The translations under genes were made by a program, and so were the position numbers. 64,000 nt of DNA from positions 25,747-89,746 of the forward strand of contig JAJRVJ010000005.1 of the NCBI GenBank assembly GCA_024277435.1, written 5' to 3'. The stretch is from Patescibacteria group bacterium. Lineage in GTDB: Bacteria; Patescibacteriota; Patescibacteriia; UBA9570. Positions 11,613 through 63,923 of the stretch are shown here, piece after piece (the first letter of the stretch is position 1; every line of letters starts with the position of its first letter). The notes beneath the pieces were generated by a model. That model was not told the origin of the DNA and did not search any database. It saw nothing but the letters and a program-made list of their open reading frames with translations.

Positions 11613-11625
11613 ACAGCCTACAATA

Positions 11626-19925: not shown

Positions 19926-22900
19926 TTATGCTTCCATACGATCTTCAAGAGCGCTACGCATAGCTCCATAATCGTAAGATTTAAACTGTGCACCTCGTGT
20001 TTTTGTAAGGCGCATTGACGCAAGCATAGTTTTTCCGCCTCCCTGCATCTTTGCAGTTATTTGCGCAAGATCTGCAAAACGCGCTAACGTAGCTTCAAGG
20101 TCAAAGTCTGGCTCAACTACTTTCTCAGAATCAAGTAGTGATGCAATAAGCGCTTCAACATCATTCGCATCTAATCCCAAGCCAAATACATCACCAAATT
20201 CTGTCTTGTATGAACCTGGACGCATTAACCTTTCTACCAGAGCTTTATTTGAAGCAACAGCTTGATATAGGCCATACTCGTTAAAACGGAATGCATCGCG
20301 CGCGCGCAATGTACTTGGTGGCAACATGTTCTTAACAGCCTCCTGTACTCGTGCTTCATTTAATTTCCAAGCACCATCCGCATCACCTTCGCCGTCTTGA
20401 TATTCATAAAATCCAACTTGGGTTTGCCATGCCCCCGCACCAGCTTCTCTAGACTGTCGAAACACAGCTTCTATCCTCTCACAATAGCCACCAACTTGCG
20501 CAAGTGCCTCAACTGTTTTCTCTGCTTCACCGCCAGTAGTATTACTAATTACATCTAATACAATCTTCGAAAGATCTGGATACTCCAATAGAGATTCAAC
20601 ATATCTAGTAAGCGTATCAACTTTACCTTGTAAATCCAGAGCCTGTTCTGGCGCCGCCGCATCAACTTCTGCAACATCAATATTAGCCTCGGCAAATTGT
20701 TCGCCAGCCTGTTGTTCATCCGCCCCAACTGGAGGCTTAGCATTAGGATTAAAAATTTCAACACCTTTTATCCCAGCTTGTAAATTACGAATAACAACAG
20801 CCACTTGTTCTGTATTAATTTCTTCTTTCGTACCAGCGCCAATTGCTGACAAGAAAATATTATCTAACCTTTCATTCAAGTCTTTCCGATCCTCCGGTGC
20901 AACTGCAGATACCGCCTCACTTCTGCGTCGTAATCTACCACCACTCTTACCAAGTGCATTGCGCCAATCAGTATTACCACCACGACGTGATTCCATTTTT
21001 CTACGCTTTGCTTCTAACGCACTCAAGAGCTCATTGGCCATTTCCGCTCGTTGCGCAGCTGGAACACTAACAGTAGCCTCACGAAACGCCGACACAAATT
21101 CAGCTCCTACCATGCGCCGTGTAAATTTAACTGCTTCCCGGAAATTACCGATAAATGGAGCGTCAACAATAGCCTGCTCAGCGAACGATCGTAATGCAGC
21201 GGCATCCGGCTGTTTATTTTTTACATATCCAAAATGCGTGGCCAGCCTAATCATACGGGCCTTAAATAATCCAGCTCGGCGCTGCGCAAAAACAGCCATT
21301 TTCTTTGAATAGGGTTTTATTTTTTTCTCATCATCAGTCATTTCAAATTCTGGCCCTAACGGCTCGGCCTCTTCTGCACGATCCAATAACCCTAATAAGG
21401 TATTTTCAATATCACTCAATGAAGCACCGCCACGAGCATTCATAGCAACCACTACCTGATTAGGAACAATTTGATATAGTTCCTGCTGAGTTTTAAATAA
21501 TAATCGATCAATCTGGTTCAATTCAACATTCACACCGTCTTCTTCAATTTTTCGATGAGCTCGCATTCTATCTAAGCGATCCAATTTACGCACATATCCT
21601 GCCGGCTGTCTTCGCAACACAATACCCTCGGTACCTGCAACTGCTGCAACCGCTTCTACTCCCTCAGCAGCTTCCACTGCTTCAATCGCCTTACTACCTT
21701 TTACTAGCTCAACTTCACGCTCATGTGTAAATTCAATCGTTCTACCATTTTTATATTTTGGTGGCTCTCCTACACTGGGCATGTCGGCCCATTCCATTAA
21801 CATATCTTTAATTTGAAAAATATCCATATCAGCAAGTGGTTCTACAGATCTACCTATACCGACTGCTTTATGGGCTTCTTCAAGAAATGTATCAAAGTTT
21901 GGAATACGTCTACGCGCAGCATCAATATCCCGTTCTGTATCAAGATTCAAGCGCTCGGTACCACCAGCAGCATTTGTTACCTTAAGTTCAACGCTACCAA
22001 TAACTGCTCGTTCAGCAACTGCCACTTTTCGCAACACACGTTCGCGATGCTTTTGTTCTCTACTCGGACCATTACGATCGTAAGCTGATACGCGCTCATC
22101 AGTAACACTTTCCCGCATCACTTTCAAATCCTCAATCATCTGATCAATCTCACTTTGTAATTCAGGCACCGGATTACCTTCCGGAGTTAATACCTTCGCA
22201 ACTGCAGATGTTACATCAACTGTTGGAAAGCGCTTATCAGCCTTATTCCAGGTTCCCATTTTTTCAATCCTACTCCTATCATCCATTACATCCTCCAACC
22301 GTGAGCTACGCGCGCGCACCCACTCAGCCACTCCATTATATGCATCCAACTGGGTATTGCGCAGTGTTCCTTCAGCTAATCGAATCATATCCTCAATTGT
22401 GCGCGCACTTTTAACTCTACCACGTTCTTTTTTAACCGAAACAAATGTATCGCTTCCAGTAAGCCACTGCTTACCTGGTTCAGCAGCCATCGCAGCCAAC
22501 TGTTCGCGAGCGGCTGCCACAGCAGCATATCCACGATCTACAAATTGCCCTAAAAGTACTTTAGCAACACCTCTGGCAGCCTCATGTGTTTCAACGCCTT
22601 GCCTACCTTCAGTAAAATATTCCTCTCGCAACAATGCAACCTGTGCTGGTAGTGTACGCTCCTCATATTCACGCTCGTCACCTTCAAGAGCATCTCCAAG
22701 AACATCTACTAATCCTGGACGCAATTTTTTATCATATACTCTTGCAGCACCTCTATTTACCTTTGCTTCACGCTTTGGCTGCTCTCGCTTCCGTTTACGA
22801 GGAGCTCTTTCGGAACGCGGGCTTTGCGCTGTAGCGGCATCTGTTGTAGGTGCAGCATCAGAGCCAAGATCAGCAGCAAAGGCTGCAAGCATATCTGGAT

Positions 22901-22979
22901 CAACGGGTTCTCCAGCCTGCCCTGGTTGCACTACTGGATCTGGATTGGGTTTTCGAGCTCCTGGTTTTGATTCTGGCAT
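19926..22979 (-). CDS. large hypothetical protein (1017 aa), Ala/Arg/Glu-rich, no recognised domain
   Basis: Long uninterrupted ORF; the DNA is GC-richer than its flanks. Composition: Pro/Gly-rich N-terminus, then long helical-looking Ala/Arg/Glu-rich segments. Confidence 0.6.
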   Translation of the reverse strand: MPESKPGARKPNPDPVVQPGQAGEPVDPDMLAAFAADLGSDAAPTTDAATAQSPRSERAPRKRKREQPKREAKVNRGAARVYDKKLRPGLVDVLGDALEGDEREYEERTLPAQVALLREEYFTEGRQGVETHEAARGVAKVLLGQFVDRGYAAVAAAREQLAAMAAEPGKQWLTGSDTFVSVKKERGRVKSARTIEDMIRLAEGTLRNTQLDAYNGVAEWVRARSSRLEDVMDDRSRIEKMGTWNKADKRFPTVDVTSAVAKVLTPEGNPVPELQSEIDQMIEDLKVMRESVTDERVSAYDRNGPSREQKHRERVLRKVAVAERAVIGSVELKVTNAAGGTERLNLDTERDIDAARRRIPNFDTFLEEAHKAVGIGRSVEPLADMDIFQIKDMLMEWADMPSVGEPPKYKNGRTIEFTHEREVELVKGSKAIEAVEAAEGVEAVAAVAGTEGIVLRRQPAGYVRKLDRLDRMRAHRKIEEDGVNVELNQIDRLLFKTQQELYQIVPNQVVVAMNARGGASLSDIENTLLGLLDRAEEAEPLGPEFEMTDDEKKIKPYSKKMAVFAQRRAGLFKARMIRLATHFGYVKNKQPDAAALRSFAEQAIVDAPFIGNFREAVKFTRRMVGAEFVSAFREATVSVPAAQRAEMANELLSALEAKRRKMESRRGGNTDWRNALGKSGGRLRRRSEAVSAVAPEDRKDLNERLDNIFLSAIGAGTKEEINTEQVAVVIRNLQAGIKGVEIFNPNAKPPVGADEQQAGEQFAEANIDVAEVDAAAPEQALDLQGKVDTLTRYVESLLEYPDLSKIVLDVISNTTGGEAEKTVEALAQVGGYCERIEAVFRQSREAGAGAWQTQVGFYEYQDGEGDADGAWKLNEARVQEAVKNMLPPSTLRARDAFRFNEYGLYQAVASNKALVERLMRPGSYKTEFGDVFGLGLDANDVEALIASLLDSEKVVEPDFDLEATLARFADLAQITAKMQGGGKTMLASMRLTKTRGAQFKSYDYGAMRSALEDRMEA

Positions 22980-23194: not shown

Positions 23195-26100
23195 TTAAGT
23201 AAAATCATCTGGATCCCATGCTCCCGCAAGTGGATCATCTTCAGCAATTTCTTCAGGCGCAGTTTCAGGAGCGGCTGACGGGAAACGATCAGGATCAATA
23301 ATTTGTAACCAGGTATCAGGAATTGCTGACTTAATAGCCCCGCGTGTATGCTCAGACCATCCTGCCCATACCATTGCCAACGCATCACGTACGGCGGTAT
23401 CATCAGCTGCAGCGCGTTGTTCAATATATGTTCTAAAATGATCGACATCATCAATGTGCTCTGGACGATACAATTGCTCACCATCAGCAATCTCTTGATC
23501 CCACATCGCAAACATGAAGCGTTCACGATTTTGACCTAGCTGATCCATTGAAATAGGCCCTAATTCGGAAAGTACACTTGAAAATTCAGATTGCCTCCAT
23601 GCCACATCTTCACGTATACCTATGTCACGCTGTCCCACGATGCGACGACGAACACGATCACGTAACCGATCATAATGCCCCTCTGCTTTCGCCCAATCTA
23701 TAAATGCAGTAAGAGCTTCTTCCTGTTCAGAATCTGGGCCTAAAAAAGCATCATACGTATTTCCTACTTGTATCGCCTTCAATAATGCGTCTGTATCCTC
23801 GCTCGTAAGAAATTCTTCTTGAAGCTCTTGTAAGCGTCGAGCAACTTCCTCAGTAAGCTCTGGAGCGCCTGTAGATTCTAGTTCCTCAGGTTGAGCGAAA
23901 GGAAAGTCTTCAGCTGGCGGCGCTTCAGTAAACCATTCATGTGGTATTTCTAGAACGCGTTTAAAATATAAAACCTCTCCTGCATCATCAGAAATTGCAG
24001 CCCAAATACGACGGCGTAATTCTGGTAATTCACCGGCAGATTCTAATTCTCGATAAAATTCCGAAAAGACAGCCACTTCTCTAGATGAAATTGGTGATAA
24101 AATTCCACCTCTCTCATAACTACCTCGTACATTAGTTGCAAAAATAGCTTTCTGACGCTGCTCCAGCTTATCGCTATCAGGAACAACAATATCAGCAACA
24201 AAATCACCCATACCAACAACTCTCCACGCTCGAGTAGTATTTATACCGTTAGAAAGATTATCTTTCACCATTTTTTGAACCCCAGTTCGTAATACATCTA
24301 ATTTACCGTTCTGTTCTGCCCATAAGCGTACTTGCGGCCATACTGCACGATCTTCTTCGTTATTAAAGGGAAACATAATAATACTTCCGCGCTCAAGTTG
24401 GTCAACAATCCTATCAAACGCTTCTCTATATCCTTCGGGAAGGCTTTGGCGTGGATCAGCCTCTGGCACTACAGGCGGCGCCTCTGCTGAAACTTGTTCT
24501 GGTGTTGCAGGAGTAGAAAAATCTGGTGGAGAAGCAGGTCCGCTAGGGGGCGCTGAAAAATCAGGAGGTGAGGTTGGCGCTGATGGCGTACCGAACGTTG
24601 GTGAAGCAACAGGTGTTCCAAAACTAAGTGGAGCAACCGGACCACCTCCTAGTCCACTTAAACCAACTGCGCTAGATGATGCTGAAGGTTTAATAACAAC
24701 CTTCGGAGCTGGTGCTTTAGGGGCGGCTGGCTTAGCTGGAGTTTTTGGTGTTGAAACAGCGGCGGTTGGCACCGAGGTTGTAGTATCAAAAATATCATAT
24801 CCTGCTACAGCATTCGCAACCACTTGACGAATCCTTGCGTTGTTAATACGAGGCACTAACCCGGTTGTTAAAAAACTGGCTGGCGGACCAGATACAGCAG
24901 CATGCTTATCTTCACCCGGCAATACTTCTATTGATCGCACTAACCGCTCCATAGCTGCTAATCCTGCATCACTTGTAAATGCGAATGGTAATGGATAATC
25001 AACTGAGGCATCAGTAACTGCGCCATGGTGACGCAATCGTTCCATAATATACTCACGCACTTTCACATTTGGGAACGCTAAATCAAATCGCACCACTAAT
25101 TCTGCTAAACGAAATAACTCCGTCACGTTTGTAAATTTTTGCATAATATCTGCACGCGCCCCATCAATAATTGCATTACCTGGCTCCACAGCAATAAAGT
25201 CGTTAAACCCATGCTGCATATCAATTAACGAGGTACGTAATCCACGGATATTACTTTGTAACGTACTTACACTTAAATCATTGCCACGATCAATCATTAA
25301 TTGCGAAACCACATCTACTAACGGACCAGGACTAGTAGCATCGGTAGATAAATAATTCTGCAAACCAGTTACCACAGCTGTATCTAATTGATCTGGATAC
25401 GGTGCCACCGTGGATTCTACGCCATTCAAAAATGGCTCGAAAGCACCATCGTACTGATCAGCATCGATATCCTGGTAAAACAAATCTCCCTCACCACCCT
25501 CATACCATTGTCGCGCCTCTATAACTTGCGTAACTATTGTACGAAGATCACGGCGTAATGTAGTTGCACTCTCTAGGAAATCAACACCTATATCACCATT
25601 CGTATTTACAGTTGTCATTACATCTTTCACACGCTCCGTTACACTCTGCTCTGCGGCATGTAAACGAGCATGACGTTGTCGTAATTCTAGCAACATTCCA
25701 GCTGGACGATCTCCTGTGTGTTCCTCTTCAGCAGCAGTTACTTCAGGATGTGAAAAATCACGCCCCTTGATACTATCTGGCACATACATTTCTGGTGAAC
25801 GTGGGGTGCGTCGCGTTTGCAAATTTTCCATGTTATATGGAGTGAGCTCTTCCTCAAGAAATGTACTTACTACAGCCTGACGCAATTCAGTATTTGTACC
25901 CTCCGAAACCTCACCTGCTAATTCACTTACGTTATGCATGATATCTTCTACTGCAAGTGTGTCAGCTAACTGCATTGTCACTTCACCGCCCCTAAAGAAT
26001 ATTTCTGCCAAACGATCGTTATTAATTGCTGAATTTAGACCAATGCTATCATTATACGTATACACGCTTAATTGCGATGCATGATTCAATGCTCCTGGTG

Positions 26101-28384
26101 GTAAATCAAATAACGACTCAGAAAATAACGACTCACTCGCCGTAAATATAGGAGTTCCGTCTGCTGGATTCAGTATTGTTACCATCCCTGTATTTGCATC
26201 AATGGTAATTGAAAAAGTATCTTCACCAATTTGAAATGGTTGTGCACTTCCATCAACAACACTTACCGTATTCGTTGTTTCAATAAGAGCCTCCCCAAGT
26301 GGCACACCATATTCCGTAATATCTATATGGTTTACTGTTTCACCAGTAGCGCTTATAAAATCTATTCTACTTCCATCTGGCGTAGCTTCTATTCCTACAG
26401 TGCGAATATCTACCCCCTCTGGAACCGGAATGATAGCATCTTGCACCATACCATCAGTGGTGTCACTAATAATAATTTCTGTACCACTCGCCGACAATGT
26501 AGCTATTCGATCACCACCAATATCAATCATGGCTGGCGCAGCTCCTTCAGGCCAAGCCGGTGGTGCACTTACTGGTTCAGTGTGCGGGAATGCCGCATCC
26601 AATACTAACGATACGGCTGACGCTGCAGCTCCACCAAGTAACGTGCCCTTGAGAATTTGTGTAAGCTCACCTTTACGAAGTTGTCCCTTAAATTTGCTTT
26701 CAACTTTCTCAATCAATTTCTTCCGTTTCTGATCTTCACGAATCATAGCATCTTGTAATTGTTTACGCGATTCATCTTCAAGCGTATCCATAAATGCAGT
26801 CACTTCAGAAAGCGCTCCCTCTAATTGTTGTGCGAACTGTAAGATAGCTGCGTCACGATTTTGATATCCAAAGCCAATGTAATCCTGCTCCCCACTTTTA
26901 CGTGAACGACGCATGCGCCCATGCGCGTCAGAAATTGTTCCATACAATACTAATACAGTATCATGTAATTCATTTTTTCGTTCGCGTAACTCAATTTCAT
27001 CATTTACAGAGTGTACTCCAAGTGGAGGTGCCTCCCCCTTTTTTCGCGCTTTAGCTTCTTGACTACGCGCTGCCCTCCATTTTTGCTCTGCATTCTTCAC
27101 TTCTTGTTCTGCTTTTTTTACAGCCATAACCTGCGCATCAAGAACTTGCACAATACGCTCAGCGCTGCGTACCACTTCATATTCTTCCTTGCCAACCTTT
27201 ACAGTGTATTCACGTGAACCAATAGCTGCATCTAATCGCTTCCGACGCTTCCGCTTTCGTGAATTCATTACTGCTCGTGCAAAACCAGCTACCGTACCTA
27301 AGCCTGCAGCAATAATTAAGCCAGTACCGCCAGTAAGCGCGCCTACACCCGCTGTAACACCTATTGTAAATTTTGCGCCTCCCCTTATTCCCACTGTCCA
27401 AGCGGTACCAGATGTTACAATGCGTTTCCCCCCATCAATAACTAACTGTAGCGCTGCTGGATAATCTCTATCAACTTCCTTTTCAATTACCTTTGAAGTA
27501 ACTGTGGCCTGCGCAGTTTCGGCTGCTAAATTTACTAGTTGATCTCGCAATAATACAGCCCAATGCTTATGAATAGCGTTTTTAATTTTAAATGCCTTAT
27601 TACCAGACTTCATTTCTGGAGTAGTGAAATCGAGTATCCCAAACGAACCTCCTAAATCGTACTCATTATTGCCGTGAATATTAATATGGCCAATAATCTG
27701 CTGGATACCATTAGTATATTCAGTATGCGCTAATACCTGAGCCACACTTATTTCACCGGCTTGAAATTCAGTAATAATTCGACGTAACTTCTTACCGCCC
27801 ATCTCCATATAATCTTCGAGACGCTTCCTATCAATTGCTCTGGTAATTGCCGATTCCAAAGCGGTATTCATATAACTCGTACGTTGACGAATCTCCGCTT
27901 TTTTCTTCGCTACATCACCAAAGTGCCTACTTTTACCAAAAGCCGAAAACGAAATATCATTCACTCCTAAATCTCTGCCCAACTCTTTCATTGCACCTGC
28001 AGTAAAACGATATAACCAACCAGACTGCGTCATGTTTTCGGCATGAGCATAATCCGATTCTGTTTTAGCTTCTAGTGAAATTTGCACTTCCAAATCACGT
28101 ACGGCATCACGTAGTATTTCGGATGAAATACCATGCTCATTCACTAAACCAGCTAAACGTTCTAATACATAGTCATCATGATATATTCCAGACTCACGAA
28201 ATCTCTTACCAAGCGCCTCACGAATATCATCAGTTTTTACAACTTGTACCTCAGGTACCTCACGAGATCGACGGCTTTTTCGCTGTAAATCAACCTCCCT
28301 TTTACGTACTCGCACATCACGTTCACGCTGTTGAGCACCATGTCTGTGGGTTTGCCGCTTAACTTGTTGTTCAGCTGGTAACAT
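23195..28384 (-). CDS. giant hypothetical protein (1729 aa) with a Gly-zipper TM hairpin, a long Pro/Ala/Ser-rich linker and unknown domains
   Basis: Single ORF. TM-like segment GVTAGVGALTGGTGLIIAAGLGTVAGF followed by RKRKRRKR. Low-complexity PAAPKAPAPK...SPPDFSAPPSGPASPPDF region. Its start lies 2 nt after the stop of the 104-aa ORF. Confidence 0.6.
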   Translation of the reverse strand: MLPAEQQVKRQTHRHGAQQRERDVRVRKREVDLQRKSRRSREVPEVQVVKTDDIREALGKRFRESGIYHDDYVLERLAGLVNEHGISSEILRDAVRDLEVQISLEAKTESDYAHAENMTQSGWLYRFTAGAMKELGRDLGVNDISFSAFGKSRHFGDVAKKKAEIRQRTSYMNTALESAITRAIDRKRLEDYMEMGGKKLRRIITEFQAGEISVAQVLAHTEYTNGIQQIIGHINIHGNNEYDLGGSFGILDFTTPEMKSGNKAFKIKNAIHKHWAVLLRDQLVNLAAETAQATVTSKVIEKEVDRDYPAALQLVIDGGKRIVTSGTAWTVGIRGGAKFTIGVTAGVGALTGGTGLIIAAGLGTVAGFARAVMNSRKRKRRKRLDAAIGSREYTVKVGKEEYEVVRSAERIVQVLDAQVMAVKKAEQEVKNAEQKWRAARSQEAKARKKGEAPPLGVHSVNDEIELRERKNELHDTVLVLYGTISDAHGRMRRSRKSGEQDYIGFGYQNRDAAILQFAQQLEGALSEVTAFMDTLEDESRKQLQDAMIREDQKRKKLIEKVESKFKGQLRKGELTQILKGTLLGGAAASAVSLVLDAAFPHTEPVSAPPAWPEGAAPAMIDIGGDRIATLSASGTEIIISDTTDGMVQDAIIPVPEGVDIRTVGIEATPDGSRIDFISATGETVNHIDITEYGVPLGEALIETTNTVSVVDGSAQPFQIGEDTFSITIDANTGMVTILNPADGTPIFTASESLFSESLFDLPPGALNHASQLSVYTYNDSIGLNSAINNDRLAEIFFRGGEVTMQLADTLAVEDIMHNVSELAGEVSEGTNTELRQAVVSTFLEEELTPYNMENLQTRRTPRSPEMYVPDSIKGRDFSHPEVTAAEEEHTGDRPAGMLLELRQRHARLHAAEQSVTERVKDVMTTVNTNGDIGVDFLESATTLRRDLRTIVTQVIEARQWYEGGEGDLFYQDIDADQYDGAFEPFLNGVESTVAPYPDQLDTAVVTGLQNYLSTDATSPGPLVDVVSQLMIDRGNDLSVSTLQSNIRGLRTSLIDMQHGFNDFIAVEPGNAIIDGARADIMQKFTNVTELFRLAELVVRFDLAFPNVKVREYIMERLRHHGAVTDASVDYPLPFAFTSDAGLAAMERLVRSIEVLPGEDKHAAVSGPPASFLTTGLVPRINNARIRQVVANAVAGYDIFDTTTSVPTAAVSTPKTPAKPAAPKAPAPKVVIKPSASSSAVGLSGLGGGPVAPLSFGTPVASPTFGTPSAPTSPPDFSAPPSGPASPPDFSTPATPEQVSAEAPPVVPEADPRQSLPEGYREAFDRIVDQLERGSIIMFPFNNEEDRAVWPQVRLWAEQNGKLDVLRTGVQKMVKDNLSNGINTTRAWRVVGMGDFVADIVVPDSDKLEQRQKAIFATNVRGSYERGGILSPISSREVAVFSEFYRELESAGELPELRRRIWAAISDDAGEVLYFKRVLEIPHEWFTEAPPAEDFPFAQPEELESTGAPELTEEVARRLQELQEEFLTSEDTDALLKAIQVGNTYDAFLGPDSEQEEALTAFIDWAKAEGHYDRLRDRVRRRIVGQRDIGIREDVAWRQSEFSSVLSELGPISMDQLGQNRERFMFAMWDQEIADGEQLYRPEHIDDVDHFRTYIEQRAAADDTAVRDALAMVWAGWSEHTRGAIKSAIPDTWLQIIDPDRFPSAAPETAPEEIAEDDPLAGAWDPDDFT

Positions 28385-33787: not shown

Positions 33788-34219
33788 TTATTCTTTTGTA
33801 ATTGATACTATTGCGAACGTTTCATAATCGCTATCAACAATAGTTGTTTCATAACCAAATGCCCTGGTTAAATTCATCCCCTTTTTCATTTCACCATCGT
33901 AGGTATATTCAAACGCAATCCCAACCCCCTCCCACACACATACTACATCTTCTGGGCATGGTGAATTTGCAAAACTTGTAATTGTTACTTCATACCCTTC
34001 ACTCTCAATCTTAGCTGATTGATTTTCGTGCAATGTAAATTCCTCGCCTAGAGAAACAGATAAATCTTCATACGTCTCAGGTACATCTAACACTTCTGAG
34101 GTATTTGTTACATCTGGCTCTTGAAGATCTTCTGGAGTTGACTCTGTAAATCGTGTGCAGCCCGCAGCAACTAGCACTCCTGCGATTAATACCGCCAATG
34201 TTAAATGTGTTTTGTTCAT
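33788..34219 (-). CDS. hypothetical lipoprotein
   Basis: Signal peptide plus lipobox (LVAAGC). Confidence 0.4.
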   Translation of the reverse strand: MNKTHLTLAVLIAGVLVAAGCTRFTESTPEDLQEPDVTNTSEVLDVPETYEDLSVSLGEEFTLHENQSAKIESEGYEVTITSFANSPCPEDVVCVWEGVGIAFEYTYDGEMKKGMNLTRAFGYETTIVDSDYETFAIVSITKE

Positions 34220-36473: not shown

Positions 36474-36509
36474 AAAAAATAGCGGCGATTAAGCCGCTAT
36501 TTTTTATTT
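36474..36509. terminator. bidirectional rho-independent terminator (rplT on plus, FN3-protein gene on minus)
   Basis: AAAAAAU-AGCGGC-gauuaa-GCCGCU-AUUUUUUAUUU: a 6-bp GC stem flanked by an A-run and a U-run. Confidence 0.6.
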
Positions 36510-36524
36510 CAGTGTGCAACTCTA

Positions 36525-37661
36525 TTAGTAGAGTTGCACTTTCACTTTTTTGGACTTCTTTGTTTTCTCACCAGTACTGTACTTAGCCCAAGCTTGTACA
36601 TACACCTTTTTATTCTTCTTCCAGTGTTTCTTAGTGATCTTCTTTTTTATTGTTACTTTATTTTTACTTGCATTGAGCTTGTATTTTTTAGATACTTTTT
36701 TCTTTGATCCAACAGTTACGTAAATTTTACTTACATAATCGATCTCATTTTTATCCAAAGAATTTTTCCAATTCTTAAAGTTCACAACGAATGTTTTCTT
36801 TTTTGTGTTCTTCTTTTTAATCTTTGGTTTAGAAAATCGTTGCTTAGCAATACTATTGCTATCGGTAGTGAACGACGTCACTTCACTGGCAGCTATTTGA
36901 TTGGTCTCAAGATCTTCTGCCTCAATAGTATAATAATACGTAGTATTAGCTTCTAAATCAGAGATGGTAATTGTAGTATCTGTTGTTAAATCACTAAACG
37001 TTGGTTCACCGCCTTCTTGTAATTGCGATTCATCTGTACTATATAATACAGAATACCCGTTCAACGCTTCATTATCATACGCATCCCAAGTAAAGGCAAC
37101 ATTATTACCAAATACCACAGCTGCCGCATTTTCAACTTGAGCAGGAGCACCACTGTCGGCACCTGAGCAATCACCATCTCCGATGGTAAACGGCTCAGAC
37201 ATAGTATAACCAGAATCCTCTCCTGGTGGATTATCGGTAGTAGCACGTAATTCATAACAACCAGCTTCCGTAGGATTTACAATATTATTTAGAGTAAAAT
37301 TTGCTTCTGAACTAATGGAGGATACACTTAAGCTATACCCAATGCTTTGTCCACCCTGTTGAAGGGTTTCACCAATTGCGGAAATCCCTTCGCCCACAAC
37401 CAAGTTAGTAGAACTCCAGCCGTAGGTTGAATCTGTAGGCGAGCCATTTGGAGATTCTGCTAAAAACAGATGAATATACTCTACATCTGTACTCGCCATA
37501 TTTAACGTAACATTATAATCTGTAGCTGAACTTATAGTTGTATCATCAGCCGTAACAGTAACGGTAGAAATGTTACTGTCAGATGCTGCCTGAGCGCTAC
37601 CTACAAATGCCAACATAGTTGCCAGCGTAGTTGTAAGAAGAATTGAAAATACGCTCTTCAT
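36525..37661 (-). CDS. secreted protein with beta-sandwich/FN3-like domains and a C-terminal lysine-rich FN3-like module
   Basis: Signal peptide MKSVFSILLTTTLATMLAFVGSAQA; TYYYTIEAEDLETN FN3-like strand; C-terminal tail about 35% Lys. Confidence 0.5.
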   Translation of the reverse strand: MKSVFSILLTTTLATMLAFVGSAQAASDSNISTVTVTADDTTISSATDYNVTLNMASTDVEYIHLFLAESPNGSPTDSTYGWSSTNLVVGEGISAIGETLQQGGQSIGYSLSVSSISSEANFTLNNIVNPTEAGCYELRATTDNPPGEDSGYTMSEPFTIGDGDCSGADSGAPAQVENAAAVVFGNNVAFTWDAYDNEALNGYSVLYSTDESQLQEGGEPTFSDLTTDTTITISDLEANTTYYYTIEAEDLETNQIAASEVTSFTTDSNSIAKQRFSKPKIKKKNTKKKTFVVNFKNWKNSLDKNEIDYVSKIYVTVGSKKKVSKKYKLNASKNKVTIKKKITKKHWKKNKKVYVQAWAKYSTGEKTKKSKKVKVQLY

Positions 37662-37766
37662 AGTGTACTTATATTTATTTAATATTTGTTAATTATACCA
37701 CTTAATTTAACACAGTATATCACAACATGCTTGTATTCTCAATATCAATAATGTTACCATTACACT

Positions 37767-38381
37767 ATGAAATTACTACAGCACAACTATACACCCGAAC
37801 AATGGCAGAAAATACTGCACTATGCAGACCTATTAAAAGAAAAAAATGCCGTTGTAAATTTAATATCTCGAAAAGATGTAGATAATGTACTGGAGCACCA
37901 TATCGCGCCTAGCCTTGCATTTGAGGTATTAGATAGAATAGAACCCAATGAATACATCATAGATATAGGTAGTGGTGGTGGATTACCTGGAATTGTGAAT
38001 GCTATACTATTTCCCGATAGTGAATTTCTTTTAGTGGATTCTACTAAGAAAAAAGTTGTGGCTATGCAAGAAATGATTACTGCACTTGGCCTATCCAATG
38101 TGGAAACACGCTGGAGCCGAGTTGAAGAGCTAGCGAAAGACCCAGCGCTAAAAGGTGTGTTTGATCGTAGTACTAGCCGGGCAGTAGCCAGTATGGATAA
38201 GCTTATTACCTGGAGTAAGCCATTACTCAAACCCGGCGGATGGGTTGAAGCCTTGAAAGGCGGCGATGTTTCCGAAGAGCTCAAACATATTACGCAACCA
38301 TATACCATTCATGAGTTCCCAAGCGAGTATCATATAAACGAAAAACTAGCCTCTGCCAAAATTATTAGTGTTCAGGTATAG
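37767..38381 (+). CDS. rsmG: 16S rRNA (guanine527-N7)-methyltransferase RsmG
   Basis: 204 aa; SAM motif IIDIGSGGGLPGI; GidB-like N-terminus. Confidence 0.85.
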   Translation: MKLLQHNYTPEQWQKILHYADLLKEKNAVVNLISRKDVDNVLEHHIAPSLAFEVLDRIEPNEYIIDIGSGGGLPGIVNAILFPDSEFLLVDSTKKKVVAMQEMITALGLSNVETRWSRVEELAKDPALKGVFDRSTSRAVASMDKLITWSKPLLKPGGWVEALKGGDVSEELKHITQPYTIHEFPSEYHINEKLASAKIISVQV

Positions 38382-38421
38382 GTGGACAAGGGGTCATTTT
38401 TCTGCTATAATTCGTTGTAAT

Positions 38422-40209
38422 ATGAAAAAACACACGCCCCGCTGGTATATTCTACCAACAATTATTCTTAGTGCGCTCTTATGCGTATCGGTTGCAGCAC
38501 CGGCTCATGCAAAAGCTGCTCAATTTAAAAAAATCAATGATAGTGATCTTCGAATTACTAAAGTAACCATGCGCTATAAAAAGATTTCTAGCGCCAAACG
38601 CTATAAATTTGAATTATGGAGCAAAGGCGTTACTCGATCAAAATACGGTAAAGACAAAACATTTTATAAAAAACCCAAGAAGAAGAAAAAGAAAAAATAT
38701 TTTAAACTAAAAAGAGGTAATCTCAAAGCCAATCGTGACTACCGCATTCGTTATCGGGCTGTCTACAGTGGTAAACGCTTAGGGCAATGGTCGAATTGGA
38801 AAAATTTTACTACTAAAGATTATACCGCCACATTCAACCTCACTACCGATGACTCTCTACCTACGAATGATATCCCCTACGTATTCGTGGATGACTCATC
38901 TGATATTGAATCCGGCTCATACATGATGACTAAGGTAAGTGATAATGTTTGGACCGTGGATATAAATGACATTTCTACTGGTGACACAATTAAGTTTGCC
39001 TATAGCCGTAATGGTGGCGGACCAACTCTCTTTGAACAATTCACGCCAGATTACCCTACTGCACTACGTAGCTTTACCATAGATTCTGTTCCCTACGAAC
39101 GAGATATGGACACAGTAGAACAATGGCGCTGGGCAGAAAACCCAGAACCGAATGGAATAGTAGATGATACAAATTATGTTATTGATGATAGAAATCAATA
39201 TGTATTAAGTATTGGCCTACCAGAGGATCATAACGATGGATACGATGCGTTGGTAGAATCTACTATGCAAAAAATCGCCGACAATGGATTCAACTACGTT
39301 ACCATTAATAATTCCCCTCGCGTTATTATTAATGGAGATCCTGTTGAGTTAAGCAATGAGCCATTAGGAACGCAAACCGATGAACAACTCGCTACAATGA
39401 TTGCTGCAGCTGAAAGCGCTGGCTTGCAAGTAATTCTTTCAGTGCAAATGAAGGTTGATCCGGATAATGCGGATGAAATAGAATCTGAAATGAGTGGCAC
39501 GCATAGTGATAGTTACTACGAAGCCTATCTTACTCGCTGGCGTGAAGTAATGAATGATGGCGTAGATTTAGCTATCGAGCACAATGTACCAATTGTTGTA
39601 CTTGATAATCCATGGCATGACATGACTTACACCGATGACGATCAAAAAGCCATGGTAAACGGAAATATCAAAGGACTCTTAGCTACCATTACCGATGGTT
39701 ATTCAGGCACCGTAACAACTAGTACCTATGAAGAAGACGCCAAGTTAGATTTTTATAACTCCACATACATTGACTGGGTGGGTGTGCAGTGGTATCCAGA
39801 TCTATCAGATGATTATGATGACTCCGTGGCAAATATGTATGCAGATGCACTTACTGATATAGCAGAGATAGAAACCATTGGCACTACCTACTCTAAGCCA
39901 GTATTCATTCACAAATTTGGTGTTCATGGTTGGGATGGTGCCGCCGGGCCAGAATCAAGCAATACTGCTGGTGAAGGTTATGGCGCTGAGTATGCAGATG
40001 ACTCCACTCATCCAATCGACTATCAAGAACAAGCTGATGCCTATGAAGCAGCTTTTCATGCCATCGCCGATACAAACAATATTATTGGATCAACTTCAAT
40101 AAACTACACCTACCAAGATCAATTCGCAAAAACAGCCAATATTCGTAGCAAAATTGCGGAACAAGTTTGGCAACGCTGGGATGCACTGTTCGACGCCCAG
40201 ATAAATTAA
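38422..40209 (+). CDS. secreted protein: N-terminal lysine-rich FN3-like module plus a GH5-like (TIM-barrel glycoside hydrolase) domain
   Basis: Signal peptide MKKHTPRWYILPTIILSALLCVSVAAPAHA; YRIRYRAVYSGKRLGQWSNW FN3 motif with a KKPKKKKKKKYFK run; NEP motif (LSNEPLG) typical of GH5 acid/base. Start taken at MKKHT rather than the ORF-track MFRY. Confidence 0.5.
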   Translation: MKKHTPRWYILPTIILSALLCVSVAAPAHAKAAQFKKINDSDLRITKVTMRYKKISSAKRYKFELWSKGVTRSKYGKDKTFYKKPKKKKKKKYFKLKRGNLKANRDYRIRYRAVYSGKRLGQWSNWKNFTTKDYTATFNLTTDDSLPTNDIPYVFVDDSSDIESGSYMMTKVSDNVWTVDINDISTGDTIKFAYSRNGGGPTLFEQFTPDYPTALRSFTIDSVPYERDMDTVEQWRWAENPEPNGIVDDTNYVIDDRNQYVLSIGLPEDHNDGYDALVESTMQKIADNGFNYVTINNSPRVIINGDPVELSNEPLGTQTDEQLATMIAAAESAGLQVILSVQMKVDPDNADEIESEMSGTHSDSYYEAYLTRWREVMNDGVDLAIEHNVPIVVLDNPWHDMTYTDDDQKAMVNGNIKGLLATITDGYSGTVTTSTYEEDAKLDFYNSTYIDWVGVQWYPDLSDDYDDSVANMYADALTDIAEIETIGTTYSKPVFIHKFGVHGWDGAAGPESSNTAGEGYGAEYADDSTHPIDYQEQADAYEAAFHAIADTNNIIGSTSINYTYQDQFAKTANIRSKIAEQVWQRWDALFDAQIN

Positions 40210-50433: not shown

Positions 50434-51660
50434 TTATGAGCTAAGCGCTTTCGTTTTTACGCCACGATATTTTGTGTAAGGAAGCCACTGGTCATCAACC
50501 CTCACGCGTACCCGAACTGTATATGTAGTTTCTGGATCAAGTCCACGAAATGTAGCTCTTCGTTTTCTAATAGTTTTTTGTTGCACTAATTTTCCATCCG
50601 AGCCTTTAATTTGCCAACGATACTTACTAGCACCTTTAATCTTTTTAGTTTTTATAGTTAGTTTATGAGCTTTACGGAATTTTTTAATCACTCGCGGTTG
50701 ATTACCTTTTAGCTTCTTTAATTTATAACGACCAACCTCCGTAGAATCAATAGCTTTGTTGACGTCTGTAGAGGCTAATACTGTTCCAAAATAACTATCA
50801 TCAAAAGTACTTAACGACACCTCTAGATAATCATAATAATTCCAACCCGTAACATTAAATACATCATCGCCAGAGGCCACTAATGCCATATCTACCTCTA
50901 ACGCACCTTCGGTATAGAGTTTACTGCCGCTATTATTTGCATTACTAGATAACTGAGCAGTTGTAAAATCAATTAATTCTGTATCAACATTATAGTGAAA
51001 TGTTCCTGAATTATCAGTATCTTCCCAAAATTTAATCTCTACCGGATTATCAATACCAGGCTCCATACCAGGAATGCTGCTATCAAATTCATCCATGGTA
51101 AGATGAATCGTATAAAAGTAGAGGTCATCTTGCGCCGTAAGATTATTTATACTAAACACCAGCCATTTATCAAAATCTACTGGACTACCAATCGTGTCAC
51201 CAGGACCATTCGTAGAATCTACGTCACCTAATTCAAAATACGATCCACCGCCATCACCAGTAACCACATCTAATGGCTCAATCCCAACGAGCGGAAAAAA
51301 TGATTTGTAGTACACATAAAACCATTGCGCATCATTGCATACTTTTACATCTTCAATATCCATCATGCGATCAACGTCTAAGCGCCAATCATAACCAGCC
51401 GCTAAAGCGGCGGCGCCAGTTACTTCAGTTACTTCATTTACCCAAGTATCAGTAGTGCTATTATAGTACCACCAATTTTCTGTAACATCAGCTCCATCAC
51501 TAACTAGCGATGTAATAGGCGTCCATTCGGAAGCATTATTATCAATAACTACTGAAGAGCAAGCACTTACAGCGCTAGCACTTGTTGGCACGACGAACCA
51601 TGTAATCATCATGGCTGGAGCAATCAACCAACTGACGATGCGAATAAATCTTTTATGCAT
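50434..51660 (-). CDS. secreted protein with a C-terminal lysine-rich FN3-like module
   Basis: Signal peptide MHKRFIRIVSWLIAPAMMITWFVVPTSASA; C-terminal ...TYTVRVRVRVDDQWLPYTKY with K/R-rich strands. Confidence 0.5.
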   Translation of the reverse strand: MHKRFIRIVSWLIAPAMMITWFVVPTSASAVSACSSVVIDNNASEWTPITSLVSDGADVTENWWYYNSTTDTWVNEVTEVTGAAALAAGYDWRLDVDRMMDIEDVKVCNDAQWFYVYYKSFFPLVGIEPLDVVTGDGGGSYFELGDVDSTNGPGDTIGSPVDFDKWLVFSINNLTAQDDLYFYTIHLTMDEFDSSIPGMEPGIDNPVEIKFWEDTDNSGTFHYNVDTELIDFTTAQLSSNANNSGSKLYTEGALEVDMALVASGDDVFNVTGWNYYDYLEVSLSTFDDSYFGTVLASTDVNKAIDSTEVGRYKLKKLKGNQPRVIKKFRKAHKLTIKTKKIKGASKYRWQIKGSDGKLVQQKTIRKRRATFRGLDPETTYTVRVRVRVDDQWLPYTKYRGVKTKALSS

Positions 51661-57255: not shown

Positions 57256-58538
57256 ATGCCTATAAATCATTCAAACATTCTTGCGCTGTGCTCAGATTGG
57301 TACTACACCTACCTGAATAATAAATTTAAGCATAGCACAACGTATAACCTTACCGTTGTAAAAAGCTCAGAGATCACACAAATTGGTATTGAAAAATTTA
57401 TCGATGCAACAATAACCGGCATTCAGAATAACACAACCCCCTACCAAGGTATTATTGCTACCAATTCACTAGTAGCTGCTATCGCCGCAGTTATTACGAA
57501 ACGCACAGGATTAATCGGCCCGAGCCCAGAGGCTGTATTGCGTTGCCAAAATAAATATATTTCCCGCATGATACAAAAAGAATGTGTGCCAAATAACACA
57601 CCAGATTTTATTGTGAGCTCAGAGTACTTCAAAGATTCATCACAAGCGCCAGCTTTCCCATTATTTATCAAACCAGTTAAGTCACATCTATCACTGTGCT
57701 CGTATCTCGTTAAAAATGATGCCGATTTACGAAAAAAATACATGAATCAACCCCTATCGTTGAAGAAGCTAATGTAGCATATTCTGAACTACAAGGCCTG
57801 CAATATACGAACCAGCCCAATCAACATCGCTTTAATGAATTTATTTGCGAACAAGTATTAGAAGGTGAACAAATTACGATTGATGGCTATGTATATAATG
57901 GTAACGTACAATTTTTTGGTATTACAAAATCTGTGTTCATACCAGATACCATTAGTTTTGACCGATTTGAATACCCGTACCAACTCCCTATCGCCATGCA
58001 AAAAATTATTGAACAATCCTCTCGCAATCTTATCACTGGGATTGGTTTAAATAACAGCTTGTTCAATATTGAGTATAAATTAAATATTAATGATAACACC
58101 GCGCACATCATTGAAATAAATAGTCGATTGAGTTCTCAATTTGCTGTACTCATAGAATCGGTTACTGGACAAAATCCACTTACCAGTATTTGTGATATTA
58201 GTGTAGGTGCACAACCAAGCTTTCAAGATGATTGGTCTAGTACACCATATAATTACTGTACTTCATTTGTATCGCGTGTGTTTGAAAATAAATATATCAC
58301 TAAAATACCATTAGCTACAGAAATTGATGCATTGCAGCACAGGTATCCTAGTGCACAAATTCATAATCTTATAGAGAAACCCAATGCGTACCTTTCAGAT
58401 TATGAGCAAGATAATGATACATATCGTTATGCAATTATTAATGTTGCAGGCGCTACTCTTGAAGAAGTGAATGTAATACACACACAAGTACACACAGAAC
58501 TCGATGCACTTTATGAATTCCAGCCAGCCAAACAGTAG
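57256..58538 (+). CDS. ATP-grasp family ligase, interrupted by a -1 frameshift at an A7 homopolymer (57732-57738); ORFs 57256..57777 and 57720..58538
   Basis: The N-half has PLFIKPVKS; the C-half has IIEINSRLS (ATP-grasp E-x-N-x-R). The second frame is open from 57720 and reads ...KKIHESTPIVEEANVAYSELQGLQYTNQPNQHRFNEFICEQVLEGEQITIDGYVYNG... An A8 run instead of A7 would fuse the two frames. Confidence 0.55.
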
Positions 58539-61494: not shown

Positions 61495-61893
61495 TTATAG
61501 CCAACCTACCAACAGCACTGCAGCTAGTAATAGAAAATCAATTGCCGAAAGAACGCACCATGTACAAAATGCCTTTATCACAAAGGCCTGAATAATGATG
61601 AAGTACAATGAAAATGCAAAACCAAATAGAACAATTACCGTAATTGGCCAAAATGACACAATCCCATTTAAAAATAGTATCGCTAACACTACTATGGCAA
61701 CGTACATCAGTAATCCTAAATATGGATTAGGGATGCCTAATGTTTTACTGTACTTACTAGCCTGTACTTTTCTGCACCACTCTGGTGGAAAACCAATACA
61801 CTTTACATGAGTTTTATTAATGGCATGATACGTTAAATAGAGAGTATTCAAAATACCAATCCCGGCGAGTAGTAAAATAATAGTTATGTTCAT
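61495..61893 (-). CDS. vitamin K epoxide reductase (VKOR) family membrane protein
   Basis: 132 aa; loop cysteine pair CIGFPPEWC; active-site CTWC in the last TM helix. Confidence 0.6.
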   Translation of the reverse strand: MNITIILLLAGIGILNTLYLTYHAINKTHVKCIGFPPEWCRKVQASKYSKTLGIPNPYLGLLMYVAIVVLAILFLNGIVSFWPITVIVLFGFAFSLYFIIIQAFVIKAFCTWCVLSAIDFLLLAAVLLVGWL

Positions 61894-61942: not shown

Positions 61943-62545
61943 CTATAGTATATCATAAATAACGGGCCAATCATCGAGTTGATCAGATTCAACGCAATCA
62001 TATTCCGCTTCAAAGCGCATCAAATCAAACTCTTTTGTAGCGTCATTCCAGGCGTAAGATGCTCGTTCACCGCAAGTACCATGACCAGCGTACTTTGTAT
62101 AAGTAAGCAAAGTACCATCTTCATACCAGGCGAAGCCACCTAGGTCATAATCCTTATACGGCGACGGACCACCATCAGTACCCTGATAACGCACCACTTC
62201 AAGTGGTGTTGCGTCACCGGTTGTATGATTATAATAAAATGCCAAATAATCAGCCTGATATGCATACACATTACACACCACTAATACTAACGACTCATTA
62301 TCATTAAGTGCATGCACTTCAATGCCCGCATCCTCTTGCCCAAAACCAGATTCCTCACTGCAATCACGATACTCATTCCACTGCAAACGATCTTGCCAAT
62401 AAATACGCGTAACCACCTCCTTTACCGAAGGGATATCTTTTACCTCATTATACCTTTCCTCTAACCGGCTACAGCCAGAAATTACACCAATAAAACCAAG
62501 AACAATAATTATGATATAAAGATGCCTTCGGATATTATCCTTCAT
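61943..62545 (-). CDS. hypothetical lipoprotein
   Basis: Lipobox GVISGC after a TM signal; its start overlaps the 3' end of the upstream gene. Confidence 0.4.
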   Translation of the reverse strand: MKDNIRRHLYIIIIVLGFIGVISGCSRLEERYNEVKDIPSVKEVVTRIYWQDRLQWNEYRDCSEESGFGQEDAGIEVHALNDNESLVLVVCNVYAYQADYLAFYYNHTTGDATPLEVVRYQGTDGGPSPYKDYDLGGFAWYEDGTLLTYTKYAGHGTCGERASYAWNDATKEFDLMRFEAEYDCVESDQLDDWPVIYDIL

Positions 62546-63923
62546 CAATTCCCAATAACGCTTGAGCATTCTCATACATAATCGCACGAGCTATATCTTC
62601 TGGAAGCTGATCACTTAATTGTTGCAGTGGCTGCACGGAACTGCGTAAAGACTTCTTCAAATCATGATTATCCTCACTCCAATATTTTTCGTCAGTTTCC
62701 ACCATAACGCGATCACTATAGGTTGTAAATATATTCTTCCAAGCAGATCGCAATGTACCATCGCGTTTAATTGGCCGATGTGGTGTGTAAGCATCTTCAC
62801 TACGCATTTTTACAGCCACATATAAATTATCATGTTGCTCCAACATATCTACATATGTAGAGGGCCGAGATAAATCTGTTTCATACCAACCTAAGTGTCC
62901 CCAGATAATCTTTGTATCACGATTATGTTCAAGTAAATTGGCTAATTGTTGTAACTTAGCAGTAGTGGGCTCCATATGAATATAGAGGAACATATCATTC
63001 TCAGCAGCTAAATCACTGAGCCATAACATTAATTCCTGATCTGCTGGATACGTAATATATGGATGCCCTTCACGATATGATAGATGCAGTGGCGCTAACT
63101 CACCAAACCCAAGATAGTTACCAGATTCTGCAGCAGCTCGAGCCCGATTCTTAAACCGCGTTTCCCAGGCATTAGGATTTTCCAATATTTCCTGTGCGGT
63201 TTCAAATTCACTGGAGTAATCCTTTTCACCTGGCCCATTTGGAAATACGGTACCTTCTGTAATATCTTGTTCTTCACCTAATATATGTGCTATTCCATTA
63301 AGTTTGGTGCCACCATATAAAAAACTATAGTTTCTATCAGACTCACCTATAAAATCCACTATATCAGATGCCTTACCAGAATCCTGAGAATTCTCCAATG
63401 GTGCTGGTACCGGTTTTAACACCTGATGTGTAATATTCCAAGCTGTCATGGCTTCTTCTATAGCCTCTAATGAAGCCTGCTCATTATTTACATTAGCATG
63501 CGCATGCATATCTACGACTTCCGGCTTGTTCTCAGCGGAAACTCCTGACTGTGTTCTAAACGACTTCGATACCCATTTACCGTAACCCTTATCCGTTACT
63601 GAACGTACTCGTATTTTATAGGACTTGTTCGGCTTGAGCTTATTAATAATTTTCCCAGTACGCTTGGCATCTAAATCACTAGAAACCGTAAAGCTTTGAA
63701 TTGTAGTAGAGTCCTTGCGAATTTGAACGCGATAATACTTAAACTGTGATTTATTGCTAAATGGAACATTTTTCCATGAAGCATATATAGATCGTGTAGT
63801 GCGATACGTGGTTTTTATATTAGTTGGCGCTTTTGGCGAAGCCGATGCCTGAGCAACAATAGGCGCTGACAAAAGTATTGCCACTGACAAAAGAGACGTT
63901 AGTATATATTGTGTTATTTTCAT
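62535..63923 (-). CDS. secreted protein: N-terminal lysine-rich FN3-like module plus a metal-dependent hydrolase (amidohydrolase/TIM-barrel-like) domain
   Basis: Signal peptide MKITQYILTSLLSVAILLSAPIVAQA; YKIRVRSVTDKGYGKWVS FN3 motif; VDMHAHA, YIHMEPT, IIWGHLGW metal-ligand-like motifs. Confidence 0.5.
   Translation of the reverse strand: MKITQYILTSLLSVAILLSAPIVAQASASPKAPTNIKTTYRTTRSIYASWKNVPFSNKSQFKYYRVQIRKDSTTIQSFTVSSDLDAKRTGKIINKLKPNKSYKIRVRSVTDKGYGKWVSKSFRTQSGVSAENKPEVVDMHAHANVNNEQASLEAIEEAMTAWNITHQVLKPVPAPLENSQDSGKASDIVDFIGESDRNYSFLYGGTKLNGIAHILGEEQDITEGTVFPNGPGEKDYSSEFETAQEILENPNAWETRFKNRARAAAESGNYLGFGELAPLHLSYREGHPYITYPADQELMLWLSDLAAENDMFLYIHMEPTTAKLQQLANLLEHNRDTKIIWGHLGWYETDLSRPSTYVDMLEQHDNLYVAVKMRSEDAYTPHRPIKRDGTLRSAWKNIFTTYSDRVMVETDEKYWSEDNHDLKKSLRSSVQPLQQLSDQLPEDIARAIMYENAQALLGIDEG

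Follow-up and report, generated by a model that had tools for sequence, protein, structure and literature searches.

By what means might the ultra-small cells of Patescibacteria (the candidate phyla radiation, CPR) retain adhesins and exo-enzymes on their own surface or deliver them to that of a host? The question is raised by four secreted proteins, here designated A to D, that are encoded on a contig of a Patescibacteria group bacterium (JAJRVJ010000005.1, positions 25,747 to 89,746 of the forward strand; this whole stretch of 64,000 nucleotides is referred to as the window). Each of them carries one module of about 100 residues that is extremely rich in lysine and arginine. To judge from sequence comparison and structure prediction, the modules are fibronectin type III (FN3) domains at one end of otherwise acidic proteins, their positive charge is far beyond that of ordinary FN3 domains, and they do not look like recent copies of a single cassette. 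The genes and their export signals, in window positions, are as follows.

36525-37661, minus strand: protein A, an open reading frame (ORF) of 378 amino acids (aa)
37587..37661, minus strand: signal peptide of A, residues 1-25, MKSVFSILLTTTLATMLAFVGSAQA (translation; signal-peptide heuristic)
38422-40209, plus strand: protein B, an ORF of 595 aa
38422..38511, plus strand: signal peptide of B, residues 1-30, ending ...VSVAAPAHA (translation; aligned in 16 orthologues)
50434-51660, minus strand: protein C, an ORF of 408 aa
51571..51660, minus strand: signal peptide of C, residues 1-30 (translation; alignment with the orthologue P0019)
62535-63923, minus strand: protein D, an ORF of 462 aa
63846..63923, minus strand: signal peptide of D, residues 1-26, ending ...SAPIVAQA (translation; heuristic)

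All four ORFs and their single modules were found where the original prediction had placed them. Sec-type signal peptides, each with an AxA-like site, were read from the translations, with cleavage between ...GSAQA and AS in A, ...PAHA and KA in B, ...TSASA and VS in C, and ...IVAQA and SA in D. For B, the ATG at 38422 is a sensible start because the upstream gene rsmG stops at 38381. In B and D the module forms the very start of the mature protein, in A and C the very end of the chain, which agrees with the two-and-two arrangement described originally. The modules, together with a second FN3 domain of opposite charge in A, are located as follows.

36528..36860, minus strand: A module, residues 268-378, with 37 Lys and 1 Arg, net charge +34, isoelectric point (pI) 10.5; remainder of the protein -36
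38512..38826, plus strand: B module, residues 31-135, net +31, pI 10.7; remainder -59
50437..50760, minus strand: C module, residues 301-408, net +26, pI 11.0; remainder -38
63540..63845, minus strand: D module, residues 27-128, net +19, pI 10.7; remainder -27
36861..37145, minus strand: acidic FN3 domain inside A, residues ~173-267, with no Lys or Arg, 8 Asp and 10 Glu by hand count

The pI calculation proposed with the original prediction thus placed the modules at 10.5-11.0, and the remainders of the same proteins were computed at pI 4.05-4.72. Lysine and arginine make up 23-35% of the residues across the whole modules, and strand residues alternate between basic and hydrophobic, as in RIRYR, RVRVRV, and KIRVR. 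Among the ORFs of the window, only A to D combined a 90-aa stretch of at least +18 with an acidic remainder. As a background, 830 FN3 domains, bacterial or not, were taken from the best-scoring 146 representatives in a library of 1.84 billion proteins. Their net charge averaged -1.3 (standard deviation [sd], 4.2) with a maximum of +9, and none reached +10. The window modules are therefore 5-8 sd more positive than this background. All exported proteins of the window are acidic, including the lipoproteins at 3686-4678, 10794-11717, 33788-34219, and 61943-62587 (net -18 to -40), and these sequences suggest that the exoproteome of this organism is acidic in general.

For the identification of the modules as FN3 domains, the Pfam family fn3 (PF00041), with a gathering score of 25 bits, was decisive only for D (E value of 4.6e-11, 43.2 bits). 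The C module stayed under this cut-off (4.7e-4, 20.7 bits), and the module of its orthologue P0019 matched at 1.8e-3, spanning profile positions 3-83. The Pfam fn3 search gave no match for the B module or for the cationic module of A. When the modules were searched by phmmer against a panel of 146 multi-FN3 proteins, with Pfam fn3 confirmed on P0083 and P0120, B, C, and D scored 54.8, 149.7, and 124.1 bits; shuffled queries reached maxima of 7.6-11.2 bits (at most 7.6 for B and 8.8 for C). The panel had been chosen with a profile that included the query modules themselves, but this choice alone creates no signal, since module A gave a null result against the same panel. In addition, a profile built only from the modules of B orthologues retrieved 48 multi-FN3 proteins at an E value of at most 1e-3, and shuffled decoys retrieved 0. 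When the module alignment was used as a profile in an exhaustive search, 3037 matches were obtained, among which giant multi-FN3 proteins predominated (the top 150 were almost all of 1000-7000 aa); it was usable for FN3 identity and for the charge background, and unusable for counting the fusion partners of cationic modules.

Structure prediction agreed with these results for B. AlphaFold modelled its module at a predicted local distance difference test score (pLDDT) of 82-91 in FN3 order, with six clear strands (48-53, 60-68, 76-83, 93-98, 106-114, and 127-130) plus a short N-terminal one. In this domain, the C'-E loop reads KKPKKKKKKK and the F strand RIRYR, and a WSNW motif is present. The top matches of the B module profile in the Protein Data Bank (PDB) were FN3 domains (Ihog Fn1, 2ic2, and the IL-3 receptor), although they were non-significant. 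The cationic module of A, modelled from a mixed alignment, had seven predicted strands at a pLDDT of 55; Foldseek returned no significant match for it, the best TM-scores being ~0.5, to monobodies and 10Fn3. However, the co-linear module of the A orthologue L026_373 passed the Pfam fn3 threshold (4.7e-7, 30.4 bits), and the A module can thus be assigned to FN3 by orthology. The Trp-Ser of the G strand, present as TKWSNWIKV and GKWSKTKAF in the orthologues, is lost in A (TKKSKKVKV). By orthology, the A module is an FN3 domain saturated with lysine until similarity is no longer detectable, and those of B, C, and D are FN3 domains on the searches given above. With Pfam for D, phmmer for B, C, and D, AlphaFold for B, and the alternation of basic and hydrophobic residues in the strands, the modules are probably folded domains and not disordered tails. 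The FN3-like character proposed originally thus held for D by Pfam, for B and C by phmmer, for B by AlphaFold as well, and for A only through L026_373; the strand signatures quoted in its favor correspond to the F-G strands in the multiple alignment.

The charge of the modules is conserved among relatives. The GC skew of the window is steadily negative. The genes of the window and their order match those of contigs of Candidatus Kerfeldbacteria, in the Patescibacteria/Parcubacteria group (SmpB, IF3, L35, L20, rsmG, B, RarA, and onwards), and 17 homologues of B were found across Kerfeldbacteria at 36-56% identity; the assignment to this lineage rests on that synteny and on the names of the B orthologues. 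Sixteen of the homologues are orthologues whose N-terminal region is complete; their modules carried +6 to +31 and their remainders -43 to -60. Lys or Arg occupied at least 85% of the sequences at columns 68, 72, 77, 89, 105, 108, 110, 112, and 119. On average, +5 fell within the C'-E loop. Homologues of B from Bathyarchaeota, Thermococci, Humimicrobiaceae, and Dehalococcoidia aligned only from residue ~136; they open with a carbohydrate-binding module (CBM)-like domain right after the signal or lipobox, and their net charge is -34 to -61. Because these outside homologues are without the module, the cationic FN3 domain was added in the Kerfeldbacteria lineage to a pre-existing enzyme composed of CBM and barrel. 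Five loci with Kerfeldbacteria-type B orthologues and the rsmG/RarA neighborhood (L004, L006, L007, L012, and L013) come from records titled 'uncultured Gammaproteobacteria bacterium', a label that is probably wrong, given this gene content.

For A, orthologues were located by a synteny walk from the B orthologues. L025_375 (L025:1214-2341; 41% identity, E value of 1e-84) and L026_373 (L026:3072-4193; 31% identity, 4e-42) were both co-linear with A through the C-terminal module. Their modules carried +22 and +24, so the A family spans +22 to +34. The C orthologue P0019 (44% identity) had +21 in its best C-terminal 90-residue window. A homologue search with A returned only A itself, and one with C returned the one orthologue; metagenome scans with D and with the alignment of C and P0019 found nothing, and no D orthologues were obtained. 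At the syntenic loci compared, A and C occurred in the closest relatives only, as lineage-restricted insertions in a conserved gene order that were missing in L021, L023, L024, and L027. A further protein of this type, L001_407 (L001 3179-4402, minus strand; 407 aa), consists of tandem acidic beta-rich domains followed by a C-terminal FN3 domain of +25, which exceeded the Pfam fn3 cut-off at 33.1 bits. BLASTP gave no similarity between A and L001_407; the two share their architecture and a weak MAFFT alignment, and orthology is not claimed. L001_407 adjoins the C orthologue; the relative that encodes it and the closest B orthologue derive from one sample. Together with the A orthologues of L025 and L026, it suggests that there are more than four such proteins per genome. 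Three other candidates, encoded next to B orthologues (L023 7785-8924 and 8971-10122, and L027 6782-7903), look cytoplasmic, are without a module, and were rejected. The stop codon of A itself lies inside a strong hairpin (window 36480-36540, minus strand), which is followed by a second GC-rich hairpin (-28.5 kcal/mol, z of -8.7); from the sequence, the two resemble a pair of terminators set between L20 and A, whose genes converge.

These comparisons bear on whether the lysine richness has any function. It might be a compositional by-product of an A-rich genome or of low-complexity expansion in ordinary FN3 spacers. The window has a G+C content of ~40%, the lysine run in the C'-E loop of B is longer in the window than in the orthologues, and A is lysine-saturated to the point that its FN3 similarity is no longer detectable, all of which would suit such an origin. 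However, the same proteins are acidic outside the module. In A, the internal FN3 domain, of about -18 by hand count, directly precedes the +34 module; its residues 185-266 matched the Pfam families Pur_ac_phosph_N (1.1e-6) and fn3 (2.9e-5), both just under the gathering score. High charge is thus not general to the FN3 domains of this organism. The DNA under the lysine runs was checked for tandem repeats and long homopolymer tracts and none were found, so slippage on such tracts was rejected as the source of the runs. Moreover, every module is terminal, the basic columns of B are kept position by position with both Lys and Arg in use, and the A, B, and C families all keep their charge. A mere by-product is thus very improbable.

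According to the original prediction, the four modules belong to one family shuffled among different enzymes. This part did not hold up. When the cationic modules were pooled with the 830 ordinary FN3 domains in one comparison database, B, C, and D matched each other at 2-10 bits (ranks 84-703 of 836), whereas their best matches among ordinary FN3 domains reached 24-31 bits; they are therefore closer to ordinary FN3 domains than to each other. The modules of D and L001_407 were moderately related (18.5-19.9 bits) and were the sole such pair. When the four modules were compared by Smith-Waterman alignment with composition-preserving shuffles, z ranged from -0.9 to 1.6 except for B and D (z = 3.2). 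Alignment beyond compositional bias was thus found for the B-D pair, and the other pairs did not rise above the shuffles. What the modules have in common is that they belong to the FN3 superfamily, lie at a terminus, and are highly charged. These sequence comparisons suggest that different FN3 lineages were cationised in parallel, or that the divergence is very old, rather than that one cassette was shuffled recently. Such apparently parallel cationisation suggests that charge itself is the selected property. Such parallel change would exemplify selection on a bulk physical property and not on a specific binding site.

The modules are attached to differing partners, as had been proposed. The partner domains are the following.

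37146..37586, minus strand: A N-terminal acidic domain, residues ~26-172, with a GCY...GDC Cys pair, kept in L025_375 and L026_373
38827..39171, plus strand: B middle beta-sandwich, CBM-like, residues ~136-250 (AlphaFold beta strands)
39172..40206, plus strand: B TIM barrel resembling glycoside hydrolase family 113 (GH113, clan GH-A), residues ~251-595 (Foldseek; Pfam in orthologues)
50761..51570, minus strand: C N-terminal acidic domain, residues 31-300 (P0019 orthologue, 44% identity)
62538..63539, minus strand: domain of the amidohydrolase superfamily in D, residues 129-462, in which DMHAH (HxH) lies close to the start (Pfam)

The N-terminal domain of A had no family match in Pfam, NCBIfam, or the PDB, and the same three databases gave no match for that of C. 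The middle domain of B, which is present in the homologues outside Kerfeldbacteria, matched Pfam CBM_56 weakly (0.0032), as well as 5t7a (the BH0236 protein). In D, the amidohydrolase-like domain announced by the DMHAHA motif was corroborated at the sequence level: Pfam Amidohydro_2 (PF04909) matched residues 304-459 at 5.6e-10 (39.9 bits, over the cut-off of 26.4; profile positions 132-289), with the HxH motif upstream. The barrel of B had been described as GH5-like with a NEP motif. This NEP (39340-39360, residues ~311-313) is conserved in no orthologue, and the barrel is best described as GH113-like. By Foldseek, it matched 5yli, 7dvj, and 3civ at E values of 1e-10 to 8e-12 and TMt of 0.66-0.73, the GH113 mannanase 5yli giving 7.8e-12 and 0.73. 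The B orthologues P0007 and P0009 matched Pfam GH113 at 32.6 and 29.4 bits, above the 27-bit cut-off, and the B protein of the window itself had no Pfam GH113 match. Sequence matches to 4cd6 and 3civ were weak, and the HMMER alignment with 4cd6 consisted of two short stretches only. Thus, the barrel shares the TIM-barrel fold of the GH113 beta-mannanases AaManA and BaMan113A, but it is only 15-18% identical to them and the window protein falls under the Pfam threshold. The two catalytic glutamates of such barrels lie at the ends of strands beta4 and beta7. In the alignment (A1), no conserved Glu was evident right after the corresponding predicted strands, 391-394 and 494-499, so that the barrel is at most a putative glycanase.

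Other means of attachment were also searched for. At a Pfam E value of at most 1, none of the four proteins matched SLH, LysM, SH3b/GW, CWB2, SLAP, or choline-binding families, and NCBIfam gave no significant match, with unrelated, far-below-cutoff matches on A and L001_407. Signal peptides and lipoboxes were then classed with home-made heuristics in the window and in Kerfeldbacteria-type loci, which together span ~196 kb and are largely syntenic. All five protein families classed as secreted by signal peptidase I (A, B, C, D, and L001_407) carried a module. None of the five lipoproteins (starting at 3686, 10794, 33788, and 61943 in the window, and L023:3-932; net -18 to -40) did so. The split corresponds to a two-sided Fisher probability of ~0.008 for a small and non-independent sample.

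On this evidence, we consider it moderately likely that the polycationic FN3 domain serves as an electrostatic tether to a polyanionic surface. After export by Sec and removal of the signal peptide, A to D would expose at one end an FN3 beta-sandwich with Lys and Arg filling the solvent-facing positions and loops. This module would act as a non-covalent, largely electrostatic tether, most likely on the wall or the secondary wall polymers of the cell itself, with the host envelope, extracellular DNA or extracellular polymeric substances (EPS), or a mineral surface as alternative targets. In this way, acidic proteins that would otherwise be repelled, namely the GH113-like glycanase with its CBM, the amidohydrolase, and two beta-rich proteins, would be held at the surface. 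A tether plausibly fits the conserved charge, the missing module in B homologues outside Kerfeldbacteria, the complementarity with lipoproteins, and the heparin binding of animal FN3 domains. There are precedents for such attachment in bacterial walls. In Lactobacillus S-layer proteins, a highly positive cleft provides electrostatic anchoring to teichoic acids, which are phosphate-rich wall polymers (PMC11181022), and net charge governs the binding of wall hydrolases to anionic walls (PMC9241647). In the window, the lipoprotein encoded at 10794-11717 (minus strand) has a phosphodiester glycosidase (NAGPA) domain. The substrates of such a domain would be sugar-1-phosphodiester linkages, as in wall-polymer attachments, which is a weak hint, drawn from a domain match, at phosphodiester-containing glycopolymers.

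Several points weigh against a tether. The secretion classing is a home-made heuristic applied to a small sample, and the additional DNA comes mostly from one syntenic neighborhood. In C, the hydrophobic core is followed by a conserved [VI]SAC, a possible lipobox that makes cleavage by signal peptidase I or II ambiguous and that would turn C into a module-bearing lipoprotein. The module of A shows no direct FN3 signal (1.9 bits by phmmer; hhalign probability of 0.3%). Some of the conserved arginines of B (RIRYR with WSNW) may be structural, forming a Trp/Arg ladder like that of cytokine receptors (PMC6109204). Finally, the module may dock intramolecularly onto the acidic domains. With regard to C, the first heuristic placed it among the lipoproteins, and both heuristics did so for P0019. 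However, in the alignment of C with P0019, C34 and C108 are invariant and are the only two invariant cysteines in C. A disulfide thus seems likelier than lipidation, since both cysteines are invariant and a gene of the VKOR family is present in the window. This gene (61495-61893, minus strand) adjoins the DUF1176 lipoprotein gene at 61943-62587 and protein D, and its sequence implies extracytoplasmic disulfide formation.

The intramolecular docking just mentioned belongs to a wider alternative, in which the charges of the module would be complemented within or between molecules, as an aid to folding or solubility, as an autoinhibitory pro-domain, or as glue in a surface lattice or coacervate that assembles itself. 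The charges of module and remainder nearly cancel in A (+34/-36) and partly in D (+19/-27) and C (+26/-38), they nearly cancel in the other A-family pairs and in L001_407 (+22/-28, +24/-27, and +25/-28), and the AlphaFold model of B, with a predicted TM-score (pTM) of 0.64, leaves the inter-domain arrangement undefined. But B is unbalanced (+31/-59), and in its orthologues the charge of the module (+6 to +31) does not follow that of the remainder (-43 to -60). Equally acidic lipoproteins (-18 to -40) and B homologues from other phyla (-34 to -61) also manage without a module. Charge complementation is thus quite improbable as the reason for the modules.

The same electrostatics could instead be directed at a foreign target, such as the envelope of a host that is attacked or colonized by an episymbiont, the extracellular DNA or EPS of a biofilm, or aquifer minerals. 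This is unlikely in our view, though several facts would suit it. The B orthologues come from metagenome-assembled genomes (MAGs) of Candidatus Kerfeldbacteria, in the Patescibacteria group, and the radiation has been described as including small-celled groundwater symbionts (PMC7906910). The hydrolase partners, a GH113-like glycanase with CBM and an amidohydrolase, could act on foreign polymers, and A and C are poorly conserved insertions in a syntenic backbone, as genes for host interaction would be. On the other hand, the complementarity with lipid anchors is more simply explained by retention on the producer, and no sequence feature that would give specificity for a foreign surface was seen. 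An electrostatic tether on the producer cell itself thus continues to be the preferred explanation.

A broader proposal, which we put forward only tentatively and regard as doubtful, is that the terminal polycationic FN3 domain is a general surface-display tag of Kerfeldbacteria, and perhaps of other Patescibacteria, that is present on essentially every soluble protein released by signal peptidase I. It would have been acquired independently from different FN3 lineages and would bind a wall polymer of the producer or the host envelope, in the role played elsewhere by sortase/LPXTG, SLH, LysM, or SLAP. If this is true, the tag (a terminal FN3 domain of net charge at least +10 on an otherwise acidic secreted protein) would make the surface proteome predictable from genomes alone, would point to an uncharacterised anionic envelope polymer, and could be engineered as a new scaffold for surface display by electrostatic means. 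It would represent a previously undescribed protein-sorting rule together with an FN3-based wall anchor. Searches of the open-access literature returned no account of FN3 domains of this cationic kind, either from CPR bacteria or as wall anchors. A 2018 review on how monoderm bacteria display surface proteins contains no mention of 'Fn3', and in the passages considered, fibronectin figures as a ligand only (PMC5817068).

Several other features of the window were recorded. The adjacent envelope proteins at 13825-14901 and 14914-15930 (minus strand) have weak DUF11/CARDB-type repeats, and the latter has a Lys-rich cytoplasmic N-terminus ahead of its membrane anchor, a basic segment that is unlike the FN3 modules. 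Two adjacent, very large ORFs of 1017 and 1729 aa (19926-22979 and 23195-28384, minus strand) belong to no Pfam family and lie in a stretch with a G+C content of 0.44-0.455 compared with about 0.38-0.40 around it; at the locus L021 of a relative, a giant of 5316 aa that contains DnaJ extends past the upstream end. An ATP-grasp-like gene is apparently split into 57256-57777 and 57933-58538 (plus strand), the second ORF having a weak match to the CPSase_L_D2 ATP-binding domain. The split could reflect a frameshifted pseudogene or a gene that genuinely consists of two parts.

The modules can be compared with three known systems. Secreted bacterial proteins in which FN3 domains accompany carbohydrate-active enzymes and CBMs are well established, and the FN3 linkers of bacterial glycoside hydrolases usually lie between domains. 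B likewise combines an FN3 domain with a CBM-like domain and a GH-A barrel, but here the FN3 domain is terminal and far more positive.

Closer in charge are the heparin-binding FN3 domains of animals (Ihog Fn1, IL-12 p40 D3, TNCIII5 of tenascin-C, and FNIII12-14 of fibronectin), which belong to the FN3 superfamily like the modules and bind a linear polyanion by a basic surface or loop. Heparin is bound through basic FN3 surfaces or loops in Ihog Fn1 (PMC8131103) and tenascin TNCIII5 (PMC3630135), and through a basic cluster in the C'D' loop in IL-12 p40 D3 (PMC6109204). The cluster in the C'D' loop has a counterpart in B, where the charge peaks in the equivalent C'-E loop, and the F strand of B, which is Arg-rich, is followed by a WSXW-like motif. 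However, the animal domains use a patch of about six basic residues, whereas here the whole domain contains 23-35% Lys and Arg and carries +19 to +34. The modules also differ in belonging to bacterial secreted enzymes and in being terminal; no glycosaminoglycan is expected, and their binding is predicted.

In architecture, the modules resemble the SLAP/TAB domain of Lactobacillus SlpA, which is likewise a high-pI terminal domain on an acidic secreted protein. The folds are unrelated, being built of tandem SlpA motifs in the S-layer protein and of an FN3 domain here.

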